Shown piece by piece: positions 2,976-33,910 of a DNA stretch of 64,000 nt. Every line of letters begins with the position of its first letter. Within the stretch, counting starts at the first letter, position 1. The position numbers and the translations under genes were made by a program. Source of the stretch: Stigonema sp. (lineage in GTDB: Bacteria; Cyanobacteriota; Cyanobacteriia; Cyanobacteriales; Nostocaceae); the NCBI GenBank assembly GCA_965249805.1, contig CBDFMX010000002.1, positions 1,214,639 through 1,278,638 on the forward strand. Reading direction: 5' to 3'. The notes under the pieces were generated by a model. It made no database searches. It was given only the letters and a program-made list of their open reading frames with translations, and was not told where the DNA came from.

Positions 2976-4309
2976 AAATTCCGCCGCCACTGATAAACTC
3001 TATCTGAAGGGTATTGACCTTTAAGGCTGACTCTGGCAATCGTTCGATAGTCGCCGAGAGCATTGCTTGGTTGTGGAGTACGATAACCAGCAAAGACCAT
3101 CACCACATCGTTATTCTCAAGACGAGTAATACTCGGTGAATAAACTCGTCCGGCAAACCAAGATTGCGTGTCTCCCACAACTGGAGTGCTAGAAGGGATA
3201 GTAGTTGGGGTATTGTTGACATTGACAGTGATGGGAGCGACAGAGGCGATCGGATTGTTAATGCCGTTGACGATCGTCCAATGGCGAAGATCCTGAGACT
3301 CCGCATAACCGATGTAGTGGAATGCATCAGAGTCGCCATCTAGGCAGTTGCCGCCAGAAAAGAAAAGACCAAAGCGATTGTTGGGGAGCTTGACAATTGT
3401 GCCGCGAGAAGCAACATATCGAGTCTCTGTAAGACCGACTGCAGTGGAATCGTTTAGTCCAGAAACCGGTCCTAAGTCCTTGAAGTTCACACCATCTGTA
3501 GTCGTTGCCAAGCGCGGTGTCACAATATCATGATTGGCTGCTCTGCCAGCAGGAGTTACACCGCACTGCTGAGATTCAGGAAGAGCAGTGTCACCAGTAT
3601 TATCTGCGTTTTTTTGTTTTTGCAAATACAGAATCGTTCGCTGGTTGGTTTGAGGAACTTCGCCGATGATGCCGTCGGGATTGAGTAGCCCAGTAGTTCT
3701 CTCTGGGACATCCTGAAATTCAGGGACTGGCTTGAGAGGCGACTCACGTTCTGGGCTAAGTCGATGCACAACTAACCCAGCTTTATCGATATTCTCGTCA
3801 GAGCGATCCAATGTATAGAGGTAGCTGCTTCCTTTTAGACTGATTACGAAAGGATGTCCCTGTCCGTTATCATTATCATTGGTTGCGCTATCTGAGGGAG
3901 GACAGCGATCGCTCAGTTCCAGCCCCTTTTGCTGGAAATTCCAAGTTTTTCCAGCGTCGTTTGAAGTCGCTGCGACTGTTGCCTCGGTGATGTTTCGAGG
4001 GCGGTAGTCAAAGTATCCTTGCAAGTTATTGCCTACTCCTGTGATGAATGGGAAGTAGTATGGCTGCATCAGTTCAGTGCCAGGATTATTCTGCCGCACG
4101 TTGCCGACACAATATCCTGCTGACGGCAGATCGTTACTTGCTGCTGACTGAGCCAAAGTCCACGGTCCACCAGTGATTACCGCCTCAGTTGGCGAGTCAT
4201 TTGCAGTCCAGGTCACGAAAGAGTCAGATGGGGTAGCGAGACTACTCGCTCCTGAAATGCCTAGTAATGTGGCGGCAGTAAGTGTAATCCCTGTAATCGC
4301 TTGTCGCAA
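2972..4309 (-). CDS. secreted protein with BNR/Asp-box motif (sialidase-like/glycosidase-like fold), function unknown
   Basis: Long minus-strand ORF. Likely TTG start at 4309, preceded by AGGAG. Signal-peptide-like MRQAITGITLTAATLLGISGASSLA. One clear Asp-box, SNDAGKTW. No close family recognised. Confidence 0.45.
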   Translation of the reverse strand: MRQAITGITLTAATLLGISGASSLATPSDSFVTWTANDSPTEAVITGGPWTLAQSAASNDLPSAGYCVGNVRQNNPGTELMQPYYFPFITGVGNNLQGYFDYRPRNITEATVAATSNDAGKTWNFQQKGLELSDRCPPSDSATNDNDNGQGHPFVISLKGSSYLYTLDRSDENIDKAGLVVHRLSPERESPLKPVPEFQDVPERTTGLLNPDGIIGEVPQTNQRTILYLQKQKNADNTGDTALPESQQCGVTPAGRAANHDIVTPRLATTTDGVNFKDLGPVSGLNDSTAVGLTETRYVASRGTIVKLPNNRFGLFFSGGNCLDGDSDAFHYIGYAESQDLRHWTIVNGINNPIASVAPITVNVNNTPTTIPSSTPVVGDTQSWFAGRVYSPSITRLENNDVVMVFAGYRTPQPSNALGDYRTIARVSLKGQYPSDRVYQWRRNF

Positions 4310-4494: not shown

Positions 4495-4750
4495 GGCGGG
4501 GTATCCCCGCCCTTACAATTTAGTCTAGGGCTATTTCATTCTAAGATCGCAACCTCACTCGCCGTGCGTAATAAATTCCTAGGCTAATAGCTGAAGTCGG
4601 CTTAAGCCGACTTGAACTACTGTTAAATGAGCGTCCGTTAAAACGGACTTGTAGAGACGCGAAATTTCGCGTCTCTACAGAGCCAAGACTAGATTTCAAG
4701 GCTCTGATTTAGAATGAAATAGCCCTGCAATGTAGTCTAGTTGTGACAAC
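4495..4750. repeat. MITE-like composite repeat with terminal inverted repeats and internal perfect hairpins
   Basis: TIRs ctagggctatttcattctaa / ttagaatgaaatagccctg. Internal palindromes gtagagacgcgaaatttcgcgtctctac and gagcgtccgttaaaacggac. An upstream hairpin ccgtaggggcggggtatccccgcccttac is related to repeats at 45455 and 48010. Confidence 0.6.
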
Positions 4751-5429
4751 ATTTGGTGATAATGTCACGTCCTTTGCTTTTTCCAGCTAATGGTACTAAT
4801 ATTTCATACTTTTGAGTAAGATAGTTATAGTAATACTCAAAAAAATTGATTTAATTAATAATAATAATAGCAGTGAAACCACTAGAGCAATCCAGTAATC
4901 TCGTAACAGAGAAAGAATCACTCTTTCAACTGCTTGAACAATAATTTATTCTATTTCTTCATTCGCCAGAGTCTGATTAATTATTTCTTCTACCTTACTG
5001 TTAAAGCTGACAATTGCCTTACGAGATACTTTATTAACCTTTCGTCGAGACTTTGATCATCTTGCCGCTCCTTAAAAGCTATTGAAGCCATTTCAGAATT
5101 CTGAAATGGCTTCAATTGGGCTACCAAACTTCCCATGTGGTCGTAATACTAGATAATTTGATAGTGGAGTCAAGCGTAGTCAATCACCGTCTATTCCTCT
5201 GATGATGCGCTCCAAAAACTCAATCACACGCTTGGTCGGCATCAATAGAAGACAGCTTGTAGTTTTTTCCATGCTGTCGGAGTAAGACCTACCATGTGTT
5301 TCTCTTTCATCTCGTCATAAAAGACAGGCTGATTTTTTATTCTTTTCTTTCCTTTAACTGGTTGCATAATTTTTCACTTATAGCTATACTATAAATATAG
5401 CAGATTAACTTCATGGGAGGTGATAACTA

Positions 5430-6780
5430 GTGCTTAAAAAGAAAAAAGGTTTTAGCATCGCTACTAAAAGTGTTAAGTGCAAACTAAAACGTAATGGTTT
5501 TGATTTAACCGAAACTAAAGTAGCTTTTAATGAAGTTGTACACTTTTACTTTGCACTAGTTAATACACATCCTGAAGGTATTGACCTACCAAGAGAGTCA
5601 GATGGAGGATGGCGATATTATGAAAAGTTGACAATTGGTGATGATGCACAGTATCCATTGCCATTTAATGGTTTCCCCGTGCAACTTCGCCGCGCTGCAA
5701 TACGTAAGGCAATTGGTGCTTGGGAATCATGGCATAGTAATTACGTCATATGGTTAAACCGTCCCAAAAAGCAAAAACATCATAGACCGCCAGTACAGCC
5801 ACGTCATTTTAACTTTTCACCTAGTTATGATGCGGGAGTATGGAAAGAAGATGATGGTAGTTCAATCATCTTTAAGATACTAATTGGTGGACAATGGAAA
5901 TGGGTTAAGTTTCAATACCTTGCACCAGAGATTATTGGGGATTGGATAAAAGGTTCTCCATCAATAGTAATAAAAGGAAATACACTTTATATAGTTTTTC
6001 CTTTACAGAAATATGTTCCCGCCACAGGGGGAATAAAGACAATCATGGCTCAGGACTCGTTTAGGGTCTTGGGTGTAGACATGGATTTAGATCGTCATAT
6101 CGCTATACTTTCAGTTCTAGAGGTCAACGCTAAGGATGAAATGTTTGAGGTCACAAGACACTTCATTAAACAAATTAGTCATACCAAGCGTAGGAAGCGA
6201 TCGCTGTGGACGAATAGCCTTAAAAATGCGGCAGACGGGAATTGTTGAGAAGGGGTTTGGTTCTACCATGTGGTTCGGACTGCACAATGCTGAAATTGAA
6301 GCAGGTAGAACTTACGCAAGAAGGATTGTAGAGTTTGCTCAAACATGGCAATGCTCTGTTATTTCTTTTGAGCATCTAGGCAGTCTTAGACCTCAACGTG
6401 GTAAATATTCCCGTCGTTCAAATCTTAAACGTGCTTATTGGTTAAAATCCAAGGTATATCTGCAAGTTAGCCGAATAGCTTACCAAGATTACAGCATTTT
6501 AACAACAAGAGTCAATCCTCGACATACATCAAGTCTTGACCCTTGGGGTAATCCTGTCTGGCGTAATAACCAGTTCCCAGTAACATTGTTTGACTTCCTG
6601 TCTTATCAGCCTGGAACAAACTTAGTGGGAACAGTTAACGGCTACATTGCACACTCTGGCTTGAACGCTGCACGCAACATCGGGTTAAAAGCGATATTAC
6701 GGTACAGAACTAATCTTGTATTGCGGACTCTTACAAAGTATCAGACGCTCCGCCATACAAGAGAAAGCCTAGAGCAGTAA
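5430..6780 (+). pseudogene. tnpB: TnpB-like (IS200/IS605/IS607 OrfB family) gene, frameshifted near 6245, with degenerate RuvC-III (HSG instead of HAD) and no zinc finger
   Basis: Two overlapping ORFs (5430..6248 frame 0, 6136..6780 frame +1) together give the TnpB architecture. N-terminal WESWHSN and beta-rich region, RuvC-I LGVDMDLD, RuvC-II SFEHLG, RuvC-III-like IAHSGLNAARNIG in which the catalytic Asp is replaced by Gly. No CxxC pairs lie between RuvC-II and RuvC-III. Confidence 0.6.
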
Positions 6781-7028
6781 TGTTTTAGGTGTGCAATCAA
6801 ACTAGAACGGGTTTGTGACCTCCCACTTTGATTGTACCAGGCTAGGGTAGACTGCCTAATGGTTCCTACTTCACTACGTTCTAAGCGGTCGAGGTTACGC
6901 CTCATGTGGCTACTAGAAACGATTATTGAGGAGCCGAAAAAGTGAACAAATAAAGGTCGTTGACTCCGGTTAACTCCGATATTTGGCTACTCTAGGTGTA
7001 CAGAGCTTACAAAAATATTTATTTACTT

Positions 7029-7328
7029 TTATCCTTCTGCCGTTTCGCCTTGAGGCTCCTCAGACATAGGTTCCGACTCTGCTTCCGGTTTGATGGGACT
7101 GGGTTGAGGCTTAACGGGTTTCGGACCACGCGCTAGGGCAGGACTAGCCTGCTGCCTGACTTCGTTGCCAAAAGATGCTTTTTTGCCTTTACCCGACGAG
7201 CGGTCTTCGATCCGTTTTAATACTTTGGGAGTGGATTCTACAGGAGGTATAAAATCCGAATTCCCAGAATCGTTGTCAGTACTCTCTTTGGCCTGACGTT
7301 CAGATTTCTTGATTGGGCGTTCTACCAT
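7029..7328 (-). CDS. hypothetical low-complexity (Pro/Lys/Glu/Ser-rich) protein
   Basis: 99-aa ORF with ATG start. Composition suggests a disordered protein. No family recognised. Confidence 0.3.
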   Translation of the reverse strand: MVERPIKKSERQAKESTDNDSGNSDFIPPVESTPKVLKRIEDRSSGKGKKASFGNEVRQQASPALARGPKPVKPQPSPIKPEAESEPMSEEPQGETAEG

Positions 7329-7585
7329 TGTTAAGTTCTGTTAAGTCCTTTGGATATAATACCTCGCTTTGCTACTGACCGAACTGATGTTTTTCGCCTT
7401 GACGGAGTATTTTTTTAGAATCCAACTTGTAACAAGGATAGACATTTTTTGTATAATACTATAAATAAGGTAGATAAACAGAAAAACTTAATGTATCTTC
7501 AACTCATAGCAGACTTTTTCCGGATCGGAGCACTTAGCACTTCGGGAAGAGTTTAATGTCTTTGAGTACCCGGATTTAGGAAAGT

Positions 7586-8460
7586 ATGGAACATTCTACC
7601 TCTATCACCTCGATAGCAAGACATTCATCACCAGCCGAGCGACTCTCATTCGGGAAAGCCTTGCGTGATACTGTACCGCGATCTACTCACGGCAACTGGA
7701 ATCAAAGTGCCGATCGCCCCGATCCGATCGCCGCCTTAGAGGCATCTAGCCAAGGACGACTGCCCAAGAAGAGTGCCGATTCGGTATGGTCGGATGCTGA
7801 AGTCACCGTTCACCTTCCTTCGGGGTGCGGCGATCGTCATGGCGGCAGACCTTGCCACAACCCCTACCACAGGGATTAAAGTACAGGCATGTGGCGACTG
7901 TCACCTACTTAACTTTGGTGGGTACGGGACACCAGAAGGCAACCTCGTCTTCGACGTGAACGATTTCGACGAAACGCTTCCTGCCCCCTGGGAGTGGGAT
8001 ATTAAACGTTTGGCAACAAGCGTTGTCGTTGCAGGTCGCCACATCAACGTTTCGGCAAAGAACTGCTCCGAAGCAGCGCGTATAACTGCCTGCTCCTACC
8101 GGGAACACATGAGTAAATATGCTCAAATGGGTCCTCTTGAGGTATGGTACTCGCGCATTGATGCCAACGTTTTGCGTAACTTTAACCACCATGCCAAGCA
8201 CGGTCAACGCATCGATCAAAATGTAGAGACGCTAACACGCACCTCCGCCTCCGCGTTGCCAAAATTGACAGAGGTGGTTGCCGGACAGTGGCGAATTATT
8301 GACAAACCACCGTTGATGTACCACTTGCCACCTGACGATCTGCTTGAGGAAGAGGTGGAGTCTGTTTACCAGCATTACCGCCAAACCCTGCGGGATGACC
8401 TGCAAGTTCTGCTGAATCGCTATCGCCGTTTAAGTAAGTCACAAAATACTGGGATTAATC
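7586..8460 (+). pseudogene. DUF2252-family protein, 5' portion; contains a +1 frameshift near 7775 and is truncated by the IS607 insertion
   Basis: ORFs 7586..7879 and 7773..8477 in different frames jointly give the DUF2252 N-terminal signature (RDTVPRSTHGNWNQSADRPDPIAALE ... PIRYGRMLKSPFTFLRGAA ... CGDCHLLNFG ... FDVNDFDET). The match ends at LLNRYRRL, where IS sequence begins. Confidence 0.7.
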
Positions 8461-8500
8461 ATGCTATAATGGAGTAAATCAGACATTTGCTCCATTTATT

Positions 8501-9100
8501 ATGTATATCACTCCAACCGAAGCTCAACAACGCTACGGCTATCATCCCAAAACCTTGAGCAGATGGGCAGACGATGGAAAGATCAAAAGTATCAAATCCC
8601 CTGGTGGTCATCGTCGTTACCTTGTTGAATCTCTTGAAAAAGTTGTTGCTGCAATTGATGATAGACCTGTTATTCTTTATGCCAGAGTTTCTACGGCTTC
8701 TCAAAAAGATGACTTAGCGAGTCAGATTGAATATCTTGGTAAGAATTATCCAAATTGTAAATGTATTAGTGAGTATGGATCTGGGCTGAACTTTAAGCGG
8801 AAAAAGTTTATGACTTTAATGGAACAAGTCTTAAAGCAAGAAGTTAAAACCATAGTTGTAGCACATAAAGATAGATTGTGTCGATTTGGATTTGATTTTG
8901 TTGAATGGTTCTGCAACGCTCATAGATGCGACATTGTTATTCTTAACAACACCTACAAACCACCGCATCAAGAACTGATGTCAGACTTTATGAGTATCAT
9001 GCACTGTTTTTCTTCAAAACTTTATTTTTTGAGAAAGTATGAAAAAGTTATAATTGCTTCTGCAGAATACGACAATTCAGACAAACCTGTGTTAGACTAG
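8501..9100 (+). CDS. tnpA: IS607-family transposase TnpA (MerR-like HTH plus serine recombinase catalytic domain)
   Basis: The N-terminus YITPTEAQQRYGYHPKTLSRWADDGKIKS has HTH character. YARVSTASQKDDLASQ carries the catalytic-serine motif of the resolvase/invertase family. Length 199 aa. Confidence 0.8.
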   Translation: MYITPTEAQQRYGYHPKTLSRWADDGKIKSIKSPGGHRRYLVESLEKVVAAIDDRPVILYARVSTASQKDDLASQIEYLGKNYPNCKCISEYGSGLNFKRKKFMTLMEQVLKQEVKTIVVAHKDRLCRFGFDFVEWFCNAHRCDIVILNNTYKPPHQELMSDFMSIMHCFSSKLYFLRKYEKVIIASAEYDNSDKPVLD

Positions 9101-9119
9101 TTACCAGGAGGTACAAACA

Positions 9120-10610
9120 ATGACTAAGCGCAAAAAGAAGCCCAAAAACGAAATTCATCAGATGTCAACTCAGATTGTTAATGTTGTCTTGATTGATCAT
9201 GCAGTTAAGTCTGAGTTGCTGGATATTATGGAGCGCTTAGGTATTGTTCGTTCCGAGGCTTATAACAAACTTGGTGGTGTTAGGTACTGGGGAATGAATT
9301 GGCGCGATGCATATTCTGAAGTTCGTGCTTTGAGATCGCCTGAGTCACTGGGACTGCCCTCCAAGTTAATGGAATGGACAGTCAGTGATGTCGCCAAGGC
9401 GATACTAGCTCAACAAGCTGCAACTGTTGCACTTGTTAGGGGGAAGATTTGGGCGAGACTACCTGGAGAGGAGAATGAAGAGGCTCGAAACGAGGCTTAC
9501 AGAAAGCTTAACTCGACTGAGTTTCTATCAGATTCGTTTCTGAGTAGAATTGTTAGGGAGCAGTTTCAACGTGGTCATACCTGGGTTGACAACCAAATTG
9601 TTTATCAGCCAGAAGCTTATTCGGTAACACGAATTAATCGTTTTGTCTACAGACTGAGTGTATCTGGCTTGACTAGAGGTAAGCGGATTCAGTTTAATGT
9701 AAGAAGTAACCGCAAACCATCTGGACAAATCAGACTTATTTACAATTCAGAATTAGAGCGCTTTGAAATTCATTTTGTAGTTAACTTCGGCATCTATACC
9801 AAGTCTCCAGATTCAGAAAGAACACCCATTGGTATTGACAAAGGGTATACAGAAGCCTTTATTGATTCTAATGAAAAGATTCATGGTGATGGATTAGGCA
9901 AGTTATTAACTTTGAAATCAGATCGCATTACTGACAAGAATCGTCTTCGTGGTAAATTGTTTGCTCTTTTCCGTAAAATTGAATTGTCCGACCCAGTTAA
10001 AGCTGCACGCATTCTTGAAAATAATCTATCTCGAAAAACCGAAAACAAGCGTTATAGACTAGACCAAGCTGCTATCTCTTCATTGCTTGGTCAAGCCTCA
10101 AAATCCCTGTTTGCTACAGGTAAATTAAAAGTTTTTGCTGAAGACTTGACGGAACCGATTAAGAATAAACGTCAATCAAAAGCAATGTCTCGCAAGTTAA
10201 ATAGTTGGGTGAAAGGATACATGCGAGACAGTTTACAGAAATGGGCTGACTGGAGCGATTCAGTGATCACAGAAGTCAACGCTGCGTATACGTCACAAAC
10301 GGATGCTGTCACGTTTACCCTTTTAGGGAAGCGTGAAGGCGACCGTTTTACCAGGCATACTGGGGTCGTTGTGCAGTCTGACTGCAATGCTGCTTTAGCT
10401 GTCCTTCATCGAGGTACGGATCAGGACATAACTCGGTACATGGGATCGAGTGAAGTGCAAGCAGTGTTATTGCGTCGTACTGCAATGTTTTTGAAACTTC
10501 AAGGCTTGAGTTTAGAAGATGCGATGGAGTTGGGATGGCTCGATCCTAAGCATCGGAAGAATCCGGAGTTTCAAAGACTGGTAAGTGGGAGCTTACCAAC
10601 GTCTAGATAG
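9120..10610 (+). CDS. tnpB: IS607-family TnpB (OrfB) RNA-guided nuclease homolog, RuvC triad present, zinc finger absent
   Basis: RBS GGAGG precedes the ATG. RuvC-I IGIDKG, RuvC-II VFAEDL, RuvC-III VVQSDCNAALAV. The region where the CxxC..CxxC zinc finger normally sits reads AAYTSQTDAVTFTLLGKREGDRFTRHTG and has no Cys pairs. Confidence 0.8.
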   Translation: MTKRKKKPKNEIHQMSTQIVNVVLIDHAVKSELLDIMERLGIVRSEAYNKLGGVRYWGMNWRDAYSEVRALRSPESLGLPSKLMEWTVSDVAKAILAQQAATVALVRGKIWARLPGEENEEARNEAYRKLNSTEFLSDSFLSRIVREQFQRGHTWVDNQIVYQPEAYSVTRINRFVYRLSVSGLTRGKRIQFNVRSNRKPSGQIRLIYNSELERFEIHFVVNFGIYTKSPDSERTPIGIDKGYTEAFIDSNEKIHGDGLGKLLTLKSDRITDKNRLRGKLFALFRKIELSDPVKAARILENNLSRKTENKRYRLDQAAISSLLGQASKSLFATGKLKVFAEDLTEPIKNKRQSKAMSRKLNSWVKGYMRDSLQKWADWSDSVITEVNAAYTSQTDAVTFTLLGKREGDRFTRHTGVVVQSDCNAALAVLHRGTDQDITRYMGSSEVQAVLLRRTAMFLKLQGLSLEDAMELGWLDPKHRKNPEFQRLVSGSLPTSR

Positions 10611-10755
10611 ATGGGTGGAAGGAACGTGCTTATGCTTGTTTTCATTTGTAAGTTCCGTTATACCACTCCTCACTCAGACAGCAATTACCGTTTTATACCA
10701 TTTAATAGCGATTTATCCTATTTCATGAGTCTCCCTAGTTGATAATGTCATCAAG

Positions 10756-11276
10756 GTGGTGGGGGTTGGCAGTGTTGGTACGCGTTGCATTGTCGCACTC
10801 CTGATGGCAGCGGATAATGAACCCCTATTTCTTCAAATCAAGGAAGCCCGTGCTTCTGTGCTGGAACCGTATGCTGAGAAAAGCATTTACCAGAACCAGG
10901 GTCAACGCGTGATTACGGGTCAACGAATTATGCAAGCAGCCAGCGATATTTTCCTTGGTTGGACACGCAGCGATCGCGAACATGACTTCTACGTTCGGCA
11001 ATTACGGGATATGAAGATGACCATTGACATTGAGGATATGTCTACAAACGATCTGATCGACTACTCAGAATTGTGTGGGTGGGCACTTGCGCGTGCCCAT
11101 GCTCGCGCTCTGGCGACCCAGTAACGATCAGTGGTTATCTCGGCAAAAGTGATGCTTTTGAACGGGCGATCGCAGACTTTGCCGTCGCTTATGCCGATCA
11201 GAACGAGCGCGATCGTCAAGCACTTGTGGCGGCGGTGAAATCCGGGCGAATCAAAGCAATAGAGTCAGAAAATTAG
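10756..11276 (+). pseudogene. DUF2252-family protein, 3' portion (resumes after IS607); a further frameshift near 11075-11125
   Basis: VVGVGSVGTRC...LFLQIKEA...SVLEPY...QRIMQAASDIFLGW...FYVRQLRDMK...CGWALARAHAR, then in another frame GDPVTISGYLGKSDAFERAIADFAVAYADQNERD. Both are conserved DUF2252 C-terminal blocks. Confidence 0.7.
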
Positions 11277-11277
11277 T

Positions 11278-11487
11278 ATGAAAACAAGCAACAACACGAT
11301 TAAACTTGACCAGTTTTTGAAGTTAATCGGTATAGCCCCAACTGGTGGGCAAGCCAAGCTGATGATTCAAGGAGGTGATGTACTCGTCAATGATACACTT
11401 GAAACCCGACGAGGACGACAATTAGTATTTGGCGATCGAGTGACGGTGGGAGGACAAACTTTTGAGGTTGATTTGAGCAATTTATGA
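11278..11487 (+). CDS. small S4-domain RNA-binding protein (YbcJ-like ribosome-associated protein)
   Basis: 69 aa. LDQFLKLIGIAPTGGQAKLMIQGGDVLVNDTLETRRGRQL matches the S4/YbcJ pattern. Confidence 0.65.
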   Translation: MKTSNNTIKLDQFLKLIGIAPTGGQAKLMIQGGDVLVNDTLETRRGRQLVFGDRVTVGGQTFEVDLSNL

Positions 11488-11614
11488 TAATAGTACACCG
11501 GAGCAGTTGAGTACTAACAGTTGGGTTAGATTGTCGCAGGTAAGGATCGTGATTCAAGCTAATAAAATATCATCTGAGATGGTACTTGTATCTCACCCAT
11601 CCCTACCCTGCTTC

Positions 11615-33286: not shown

Positions 33287-33910
33287 ATGCCAAAAATTTC
33301 TATCAACGAAGCTGCTAAATTACTTGGCGTCTCTGCCGATACCTTGAGACGTTGGGAAGAAGAAGGAAAGATTCAATCAGAACGCACGGAAGGGGGTCAT
33401 CGCCGTTATGATGTTGCCAAGTTACTCAACAGAAAAGAGCCACAAGGTAAGACTATCTGCTACGCCCGTGTTAGTACTCGTCCTCAGAAAGCCGACTTAG
33501 AGCGTCAAGTTGCGGTATTATCCGCTTATTGTGAGCAACATGGTTGGGATTATGAGGTGATTAAAGACCTTGGCTCTGGAATAAATTATAGTAAGAAAGG
33601 CTTATTGAAACTCCTGAATCTGATTGTATCTGGAGAAATACGCCGTCTGGTTATCACTCATAAAGATCGATTAATGCGCTTTGGTGCAGAGATGATTTTC
33701 AGTTTATGTGAAATGTTTGAGACTGAAGTCATTATTATTAATCGTTCAATGGAAACCAGTCCCGAAGAAGATCTTGCTGAAGATGTGTTGGAAGTCATTA
33801 CTGTTTTCTCTGCCAGACTATACAGCTTACGCAGCGATCAAAACAGGATGCTAATCGATGAATTAGAAAAAACTGCTAAAAGAATTAAAGAAAATTCCGT
33901 AATTGACTAG
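33287..33910 (+). CDS. tnpA: IS607-family TnpA (HTH plus serine recombinase), solo copy without an adjacent tnpB
   Basis: LGVSADTLRRWEEEGKIQSERTEGGHRRY (MerR-like HTH) and ICYARVSTRPQKADLERQ (catalytic Ser). Paralogous to the 8501..9100 gene. A -35/-10-like TTGACT...TATGTAAAAT lies upstream. Confidence 0.8.
   Translation: MPKISINEAAKLLGVSADTLRRWEEEGKIQSERTEGGHRRYDVAKLLNRKEPQGKTICYARVSTRPQKADLERQVAVLSAYCEQHGWDYEVIKDLGSGINYSKKGLLKLLNLIVSGEIRRLVITHKDRLMRFGAEMIFSLCEMFETEVIIINRSMETSPEEDLAEDVLEVITVFSARLYSLRSDQNRMLIDELEKTAKRIKENSVID

Follow-up and report, generated by a model that had tools for sequence, protein, structure and literature searches.

An IS607-family insertion sequence with a cysteine-less TnpB in a DUF2252 gene of Stigonema sp.

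The stretch of DNA considered here, called the window throughout, comprises 64,000 nucleotides (nt) of the cyanobacterium Stigonema sp. (contig CBDFMX010000002.1), and its positions 8428-10735 are an autonomous insertion sequence of the IS607 family that lies, as an ordinary insertion, in a gene of the DUF2252 family. The element encodes a serine recombinase, TnpA, followed by a TnpB protein that has the TnpB fold, is under strong constraint and keeps an intact catalytic triad, with none of the zinc ligands. With this TnpB, a large and uncharacterised cysteine-less lineage, found mostly in cyanobacteria, gains a new member. We hold with considerable confidence the reading of the locus as a whole, i.e., an IS607 element with a cysteine-less TnpB, a guide-type RNA (omega RNA, or right-end element RNA, reRNA) and a target motif.

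The borders of the element come from comparison with an empty site. The pieces of the DUF2252 protein, joined again and used as a query, retrieved an intact orthologue (P0121, 459 aa, 95% identity), and metagenome contigs from a related strain (L006-L008), collinear with the window, carry the uninterrupted gene. Positions 1907-3341 of L006 align to window 6991-8427 (94.5% identity up to 8427), and positions 3340-4089 align to window 10734-11485 (95.2% identity from 10734 on). Because these two blocks overlap by 2 nt at the insertion point, the element is placed at 8428-10735 or, equivalently, at 8426-10733, with a length of 2308 bp. With a slash marking the insertion point, the empty site reads ...CGCTATCGCC/TAGTTGATAATGTC..., in short form ...TATCGCC/TAGTTG... 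and with longer left context ...AATCGCTATCGCC/TAGTTGATAATGTC.... The occupied site reads ...CTATCG(CC)GTTTAAGTAAGT... at the left junction, where the longer element start is GTTTAAGTAAGTCAC, and ...GAGTCTC(CC)TAGTTGATAAT at the right junction, where the right end before CC can also be given as CATGAGTCTC. The dinucleotide CC (GG on the other strand) stands at both junctions and nothing else is duplicated, which is the signature of an IS607 serine recombinase; for IS607, Chen et al. 2018 (PMC6188088) describe an exchange at an identical GG dinucleotide that creates no target-site duplication. The CGCC ahead of the left end belongs to the target and not to the element, being present in the empty site of L006-L008. 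An earlier note on this DNA, made from the letters alone, had already proposed an IS607 element whose ends coincide with the break in the DUF2252 gene, and both proposals agree with these junctions. Its coordinates, 8440-10750, had the break point right to within a few bases, the true borders being 8428-10735. The break itself had been read as LLNRYRRL, and the protein is indeed split there, but the last 'RL' of 'RYRRL' is encoded by the element; the original protein ran LLNRYR/LVDNVIKVV.

Membership of the IS607 family is equally clear from TnpA, which scores 183.6 bits against the IS607 transposase model NF033518 (cutoff 110) and combines an N-terminal MerR-like helix-turn-helix (HTH, PF12728) with a resolvase catalytic domain (PF00239). 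The element shows two marks of the family, namely a serine-recombinase TnpA with such an HTH at its N-terminus and a 2-bp crossover dinucleotide common to both ends and the target, with no other duplication. Regarding the ends, an inverted repeat, AATGGAG...CTCCATT, lies in the left end at 8468-8496, just 5' of tnpA, and a motif scan found three NCNNTTTNAT repeats in the last 50 nt of the right end. Repeats of the same type occur in the right ends of related elements from Moorena, and the left end, scanned for the simple repeat motif, gave no match. Short direct repeats to which TnpA binds are a known feature of IS607 ends (PMC6188088). A promoter and terminator scan gave a result no better than shuffled sequence. 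Among 79 related tnpB loci, about 15 have a full IS607 tnpA directly upstream, and most of the others are solo tnpB copies that retain both ends.

The RuvC triad of TnpB is complete, as had been noticed from the translation, and is distributed over the three split motifs IGIDKG (D240), FAEDL (E341) and SDCNAA (D421). What the protein does not have is the four-cysteine (C4) finger, CxxC...CxxC between RuvC-II and RuvC-III, which is typical of TnpB proteins without being universal: there is no cysteine between Q393 and D421. The earlier note had reported this loss and proposed an alignment as a check. The alignment was run against Cas12f by way of a 57-sequence family profile, which matched Cas12f chains in the PDB and set the AsCas12f segment 'QRCSECG...fkCRACG...NAD' against the family segment 'qvdsvtG...F..irytG...qaD'; it bears the loss out. 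The four zinc-cysteine positions of AsCas12f and OsCas12f are occupied by D395, T398, R412 and T414, an assignment that follows from this alignment together with those relatives that keep at least one cysteine. By its sequence the window TnpB is a divergent member of its family, with weak but specific matches to the TnpB models NF040570 and PF07282, and a single-sequence phmmer search of it against the PDB gave no match. A confident AlphaFold2 model built on the family alignment, with a mean predicted local distance difference test (pLDDT) of 85.6 and a predicted template modelling score (pTM) of 0.65, has a predicted TnpB/Cas12f-type fold. Its top Foldseek matches in the PDB are AsCas12f (8j12, E = 1.7e-11), Fanzor2 (9b0l), ISFba1 TnpB (8iaz) and ISDra2 TnpB (8exa), and all 47 matches at E <= 1e-3 are Cas12, TnpB or Fanzor proteins. 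E341 and D421 are invariant in the 57 aligned sequences (57/57), and D240 is present in 51 of them, including the window copy. The ratio of nonsynonymous to synonymous substitution rates (dN/dS) is 0.12-0.14 against four relatives, about 0.13 over the whole protein.

The cysteine-less hairpin is shared by many relatives. A word-based homologue search with the window TnpB returned 357 matches, all cyanobacterial, of which the best 120, at 58-100% identity, were listed. They come from genera that include Scytonema, Brasilonema, Iningainema, Calothrix, Symploca and Moorena, the last with dozens of copies per genome, and the nearest relatives are from Iningainema, Scytonema and Brasilonema; a genome scan counted 521 encoded relatives. 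CxxC...CxxC is missing in 120/120 of these best matches, whose hairpin consensus is YTSQvDSvTGTLLGkRxGDxFtRFxGVVLQADxNAAxNI or, in an alternative form for the lineage, YTSQvDSvTGTLLGkRxGDxFtRxtGvvxQAD. A second cyanobacterial clade, at ~40% identity, is also without the finger, and some of its members have a single cysteine at the first and/or third position, which, judged from the alignment, are vestigial. Within this second clade the metagenomic sequences P0327-P0346 have Ala in place of the RuvC-I Asp (DKG to AQG) and retain E341 and D421; this sub-branch may consist of nuclease-dead derivatives. Separately, two Moorena TnpBs (P0033 and P0104) carry short in-frame insertions, VRVAWPFGH and TVREAWPT, at two different places, which may be footprints of a small repeat element.

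An exhaustive profile search over 1.84 billion cluster representatives (50%-identity clusters) extended this picture, with 2820 matches at E <= 1e-3 and 264 at E <= 1e-30. The closest matches are cysteine-poor forms. Among the top 150 representatives, 131 cover the hairpin region, and of these 35 have no cysteine there, 23 have one, six have two and 67 have three or more, so that 64/131 of the nearest representatives have 0-2 cysteines. Full C4 relatives appear from about E = 1e-95 on with the same GxRxGDxF hairpin, e.g., YTSQICSQCGCLGKRTGDKFHC, and the lineage therefore arose from a finger-bearing ancestor by replacement of the ligands. It also extends beyond the cyanobacteria: on an Acinetobacter plasmid, the gene next after an IS607 tnpA encodes a TnpB of 461 aa with ...YTSQSDSFLRGLLIGTRKGDRFHRFNGEVVQADWNAARNV. 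The zinc-finger-less TnpB had been described in the earlier note as uncommon and compact, and neither word is well supported: the loss is fixed across a large lineage, the kind of variant is already published for large TnpB branches (Altae-Tran 2023, PMC10691335), and a protein of 496 aa is not especially compact. To judge from these alignments, the cysteine loss is lineage-wide and real, but it is an already reported kind of variant. Many family members are named 'zinc ribbon domain-containing protein' by NCBI, a label that they owe to a PF07282 match and that is misleading because they have no zinc-binding cysteines.

From within the 3' end of tnpB to the right end of the element, a structured RNA is predicted. 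RNAalifold on 53 aligned right ends gave 16 base pairs, with compensatory changes in 13 of them. Helix 1 pairs 10579-10585 with 10592-10598, within the last codons of tnpB, helix 2 pairs 10613-10618 with 10663-10668, an inner hairpin specific to the window pairs 10621-10625 with 10652-10656, and a terminal hairpin stands at about 10706-10721, ahead of the right end. In a direct count, 97.8% of the cells are paired, versus 32-64% when the partners are slid, and the covariation score is 0.572, versus <=0.152 for slid partners; 0/500 shuffles reached the observed value. The single-sequence fold of the window scaffold has z = -2.2. We regard this covarying 3' RNA as a predicted omega/reRNA, which, by analogy with known systems, would be expressed and processed.

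Related loci were used to define the ends and the motif next to the guide; the earlier note had suggested this for other copies in the genome. The left-end alignment holds 59 loci, of which 58 non-redundant ones have enough flank to score, and these give G-(C/T)-C directly 5' of the left end: G at -3 in 57/58, C in 35 and T in 22 at -2, and C in 56/58 at -1, while position -4 is A in 35, C in 14, T in 6 and G in 3. The right-end pattern, and with it the target-motif analysis, covers loci outside the ~40%-identity clade. In the Scytonema type, conservation of the right end runs up to ...GAGTCTCCC, and in Moorena up to ...GAGTATCCC or ...GAGTATCTC; right ends of the ~40%-identity clade finish ...AGATTTAGTTTACCCC. 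The left-flank dinucleotide is identical to the two terminal bases of the right end in 40/43 loci (CC/CC in 27, TC/TC in 12, AC/AC in 1). Across loci, no conservation is seen in the first eight positions of the right flank, in line with what a guide would show.

The motif varies together with the right end. Copies whose right end is ...TATCCC sit after HGCC, and Moorena right ends in ...TATCTC always follow AGTC (L032-L034, L036, L041-L049, L051, L055, L058, L071). The right end is ...TCAC in two copies (L024 and L059), and AGAC precedes L024, the one with a readable left flank. To judge from these sequences, there are sub-lineages in which crossover dinucleotide and flanking motif seem to have changed in step. 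In characterised IS607 TnpBs the target-adjacent motif (TAM) includes the crossover dinucleotide, as with GGG for ISXfa1 and AGGAG for ISFba1 (PMC10711439). The layout found here matches theirs, and by this analogy the predicted TAM would be HGCC for the window copy and AGTC for its TC-type relatives.

Several observations weigh against the reading of the locus given above. An Rfam scan of window 4500-11500 gave no family at E <= 1, the TnpB models score below their cutoffs (NF040570 50.8 < 100; PF07282 18.7 < 26.3), and the copy is seemingly single in its genome. D240A is found in 6/57 aligned relatives, all six metagenomic, and some branches may therefore be nuclease-dead. Literature searches turned up no study, expression or activity data for this TnpB lineage. 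The host gene has decayed further, as described below, and the insertion is therefore probably not recent. Finally, the G-(C/T)-C preference could come from TnpA alone. This last point can be taken to its end, with G-(C/T)-C as an integration preference of the serine recombinase only and the 3' structure as a site for TnpA binding or transcription termination in place of a guide RNA. IS607 TnpA does need a matching dinucleotide and binds subterminal repeats (PMC6188088), of which the last 50 nt of the right end have their share; no preference beyond (G)GG, however, was found for IS607 itself (PMC6188088), whereas here the G at -3 is invariant and position -4 is biased. Moreover, helices 1 and 2, which are 70-155 nt inward of the end and in part within the tnpB coding region, covary like RNA helices, and the characterised IS607 TnpBs have exactly this arrangement, the crossover dinucleotide being part of their TAM (PMC10711439). 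We consider this alternative unlikely.

It is quite improbable, in our judgement, that TnpB proteins of this lineage have lost their nuclease function and taken on an RNA-guided DNA-binding or regulatory role, like that of TldR and Cas12k, or serve as an accessory in transposition. Such a role would fit the loss of four of four zinc ligands, the D240A sub-branch (6/57) and the presence in the window of a neighbouring IS607 TnpB-like lineage with a conserved Gly at the RuvC-III Asp position. It fits less well with the invariance of E341 and D421 and the retention of D240 in 51/57 sequences, the window copy among them, or with a dN/dS of about 0.13 over the whole protein. The genes also stay within mobile IS607 ends, with a predicted flank-reading RNA and a conserved target motif, and zinc-finger-less branches with conserved catalytic sites are regarded as probably active (PMC10691335).

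A separate matter is whether the insertion killed the DUF2252 gene. PF10009 profile positions 7-221 lie in the open reading frame (ORF) 7773-8477 (249.5 bits) and positions 230-392 in the ORFs 10756-11124 and 11073-11276. Compared with the 95%-identical intact orthologue, the gene has two more frameshifting indels, +1 near 7768 and +2 near 11104 (the latter a CG duplication), and two in-frame indels, and on this sequence evidence it is a decaying pseudogene. The same four indels would fit a gene that was already dead when the element arrived, with the insertion incidental and not the cause of the loss. Yet indels are expected to build up after any inactivating insertion, the flanks are still ~95% identical to the intact orthologue, and one genome cannot give the order of events; we find a gene dead beforehand possible but rather doubtful. 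As far as genome annotation is concerned, the locus holds an ordinary IS607 insertion, by which the DUF2252 gene was either killed or, if already dead, interrupted.

Returning to the element with its cysteine-less TnpB, predicted omega/reRNA and target motif, we read it as having entered the DUF2252 gene by serine-recombinase crossover at the CC (= GG) dinucleotide, with a load of tnpA, the lineage tnpB, the RNA structure that reaches from the 3' end of tnpB into the right end, and the subterminal repeats. Where other TnpBs have a Cys4 zinc ribbon, between RuvC-II and RuvC-III, the lineage has come to have a cysteine-free hairpin, with the triad, the fold and purifying selection kept. How the element works can be proposed by analogy with ISDra2, ISXfa1 and ISFba1. 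The RNA would act as omega/reRNA, its scaffold ending ...GAGTCTCCC and its guide taken from the right flank. Excision by TnpA would restore the donor site ...CGCC/TAGTTGATAAT..., the TnpB-omega RNA complex would recognise G-C-C (with G at -3) beside the guide match and cut the restored site, and repair templated by a second chromosome copy, with the element still in place, would bring it back. The occupied site would be spared, as its right end reads ...CTCCC, with C in place of G at -3. In this scheme we infer expression of the RNA, nuclease activity and the TAM role of the motif from the characterised systems.

Joining these parts into one proposal, we see about an even chance that this is a large, experimentally untouched IS607-associated TnpB lineage of cyanobacteria and of Acinetobacter, Vibrio and Photobacterium plasmids, in which the zinc ribbon was rebuilt as a metal-free hairpin, perhaps with a salt bridge between the Asp in place of the first Cys and the Arg in place of the third, and full RNA-guided nuclease activity was kept, and whose TAM is (H)G-C/T-C with the last two bases co-varying with the crossover dinucleotide (CC, TC or AC sub-lineages). 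If so, the lineage would offer a natural zinc-independent TnpB, a clean case of co-evolution between TAM and crossover site, and an example of TnpB/omega RNA modules being swapped between elements with related TnpA and left ends. In any case, the lineage shows that wholesale replacement of the Cys4 ribbon of TnpB and Cas12f is compatible with a strongly constrained and mobile protein, which bears on the purpose of the finger, called unclear by Altae-Tran et al. (PMC10691335). New for this uncharacterised family are the predicted RNA scaffold, the candidate TAM (HGCC or AGTC), the predicted guide start and the apparent coupling of crossover dinucleotide and TAM.

The window holds a second IS607-derived insertion, at 5143-6990 (1848 bp), likewise delimited by comparison with L006. 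It is non-autonomous, has no tnpA and has TC at both junctions; its empty site reads ...CATGTGGTC/TAGGTGTACAG... (target GGTC/TAGGTG), its right end finishes ...TTGGCTACTC, and the validated element can be summarised as GGTC/...CTACTC/. Inside it lies the frameshifted TnpB-like gene at 5430-6780, which had been placed in the same subfamily as the main TnpB. That assignment is not supported: the two elements share the cysteine-less trait, a related TnpA and the left-end type, but the gene belongs to a separate insertion, and BLASTP against the 9120 TnpB found no significant similarity (E > 1). A comparison with hhalign gave a weak match (E = 0.0015) over the C-terminal 91 columns (RuvC-II/TNB/RuvC-III, TNB being the target nucleic acid-binding domain). 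The 5430 gene keeps the RuvC-I Asp and RuvC-II Glu and has Gly at the RuvC-III Asp position, and its intact ~60%-identity homologues (441-456 aa; L092 1602-2927, L093 590-1960, L094 346-1689) read 'AHSGLNAARNI' with the same Gly and are also cysteine-less; this could be a rearranged or inactivated catalytic site. In L092 and L093 the homologue follows an IS607 tnpA 67% identical to the window TnpA, and the left ends (GTC/T(A/C)GCAATTAAG...) resemble those of the main family. This arrangement suggests that TnpB/RNA modules were swapped between elements with related TnpA and left ends. The locus is thus flanked by one IS607-derived element and interrupted by a different one, with the TnpA/left-end type shared and the TnpB and RNA modules unrelated. 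Elsewhere in the window, a third IS607-type serine transposase gene (33287-33910, + strand, 207 aa) encodes a protein 34% identical to the 8501 TnpA (tblastn E = 1.8e-30), with no tnpB-like ORF after it. The features of the main element and its host gene are collected in Table 1.

Table 1. Features of the IS607 element and the interrupted DUF2252 gene, in window coordinates
Feature	Position	Strand	Basis or remark
DUF2252 5' part, pseudogene	7586..8427	+	PF10009, 249.5 bits; alignment to L006
Target motif CGCC, candidate TAM	8424..8427	+	directly 5' of left end; CC at 8426-8427 is the crossover dinucleotide
Left end	8428..8500	+	aligns with left ends of related elements from the first element-specific base, GTTTAAGTAAGT
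tnpA, IS607-type serine recombinase, 199 aa	8501..9100	+	NF033518; PF00239 and PF12728
tnpB, 496 aa, cysteine-less TNB ('zinc ribbon') hairpin	9120..10610	+	profile hidden Markov models, family alignments, AlphaFold2 model
Predicted omega/reRNA scaffold	10579..10735	+	RNAalifold on 53 right ends
Subterminal direct repeats ACCGTTTTAT, ACCATTTAAT, CCTATTTCAT, candidate TnpA binding sites	10687..10726	+	motif scan
CC crossover dinucleotide, right end	10734..10735	+	right-end terminus ...GAGTCTCCC; 2-nt overlap with empty site
Right flank TAGTTGATAATGTCATCAAG, would template the omega RNA guide	10736..10755	+	by analogy with TnpB/IS607 reRNA architecture (PMC10711439)
DUF2252 3' part	10736..11276	+	PF10009 positions 230-392; alignment to L006

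Among known systems, IS607 and IS1535 (Kersulyte 2000; PMC6188088) likewise have a tnpB behind a tnpA whose product is a serine recombinase with the HTH at its N-terminus, and a 2-bp crossover dinucleotide with no further target duplication; they have no terminal inverted repeats, and their short subterminal direct repeats have candidate counterparts in the right end described here. The element differs from IS607 in that its dinucleotide is CC on the tnpB-sense strand (GG on the other), with TC or AC in sister elements, and in the extra G conserved at -3 throughout its family. ISXfa1 and ISFba1 (PMC10711439; PMC11061315, PDB 8IAZ) likewise have a TnpB linked to an IS607 TnpA, and the layout predicted here agrees with theirs, in which a right-end RNA runs into the flank and the TAM, with the crossover dinucleotide as part of it, stands 5' of the left end. 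The modelled fold is similar to that of ISFba1 TnpB (8iaz, TM-score 0.60 on the target). However, the ISXfa1 and ISFba1 proteins are ~390 aa long with an intact CxxC...CxxC, whereas the window TnpB is longer and cysteine-less; their TAMs are GGG, AGGAG or GAGGG, against the candidate HGCC or AGTC; and the ISFba1 reRNA, RAGATH-18, lies outside the coding sequence, whereas helix 1 of the predicted scaffold lies inside the tnpB 3' end. A RAGATH-18-guided IS607 TnpB (PMC11061315) was considered and set aside, the same Rfam scan of 4500-11500 (E <= 1) having returned no such RNA.

ISDra2 TnpB and Cas12f (PDB 8EXA, 8J12) are the top structural and profile matches of the window TnpB and share with it the arrangement of wedge (WED), recognition (REC), RuvC and TNB domains, the D-E-D triad and the YTSQ...NAA motifs. 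They bind zinc through four cysteines that the window TnpB does not have, and ISDra2 is an IS200/IS605 element with a Y1 transposase, in contrast to the IS607 element described here; the window TnpB also has ~45 extra N-terminal residues and a conserved helical C-terminal extension of ~65 residues. The pro-Fanzors, cyanobacterial IS607 TnpBs ancestral to Fanzor2, have as their defining traits a DPG motif in RuvC-I, a Glu that has moved to six residues ahead of CxxC, and a complete finger (PMC10711439). The window TnpB resembles them in being cyanobacterial and IS607-associated, and its model resembles the Fanzor2 fold (9b0l, TM-score 0.52-0.55), but with DKG, the canonical FAEDL Glu and no cysteines it does not belong to them. 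Nor is it a member of RIIIr-4, which also has no C4 finger but in which the RuvC-III Asp is changed to His (PMC10691335); in the window lineage D421, the canonical Asp of QSD-C-NAA, is present in 57/57 sequences. Like the zinc-finger-less branches of Altae-Tran et al. 2023 (PMC10691335), RIIIr-4 among them, the window lineage lost the C4 finger across a large branch and conserved a catalytic site.

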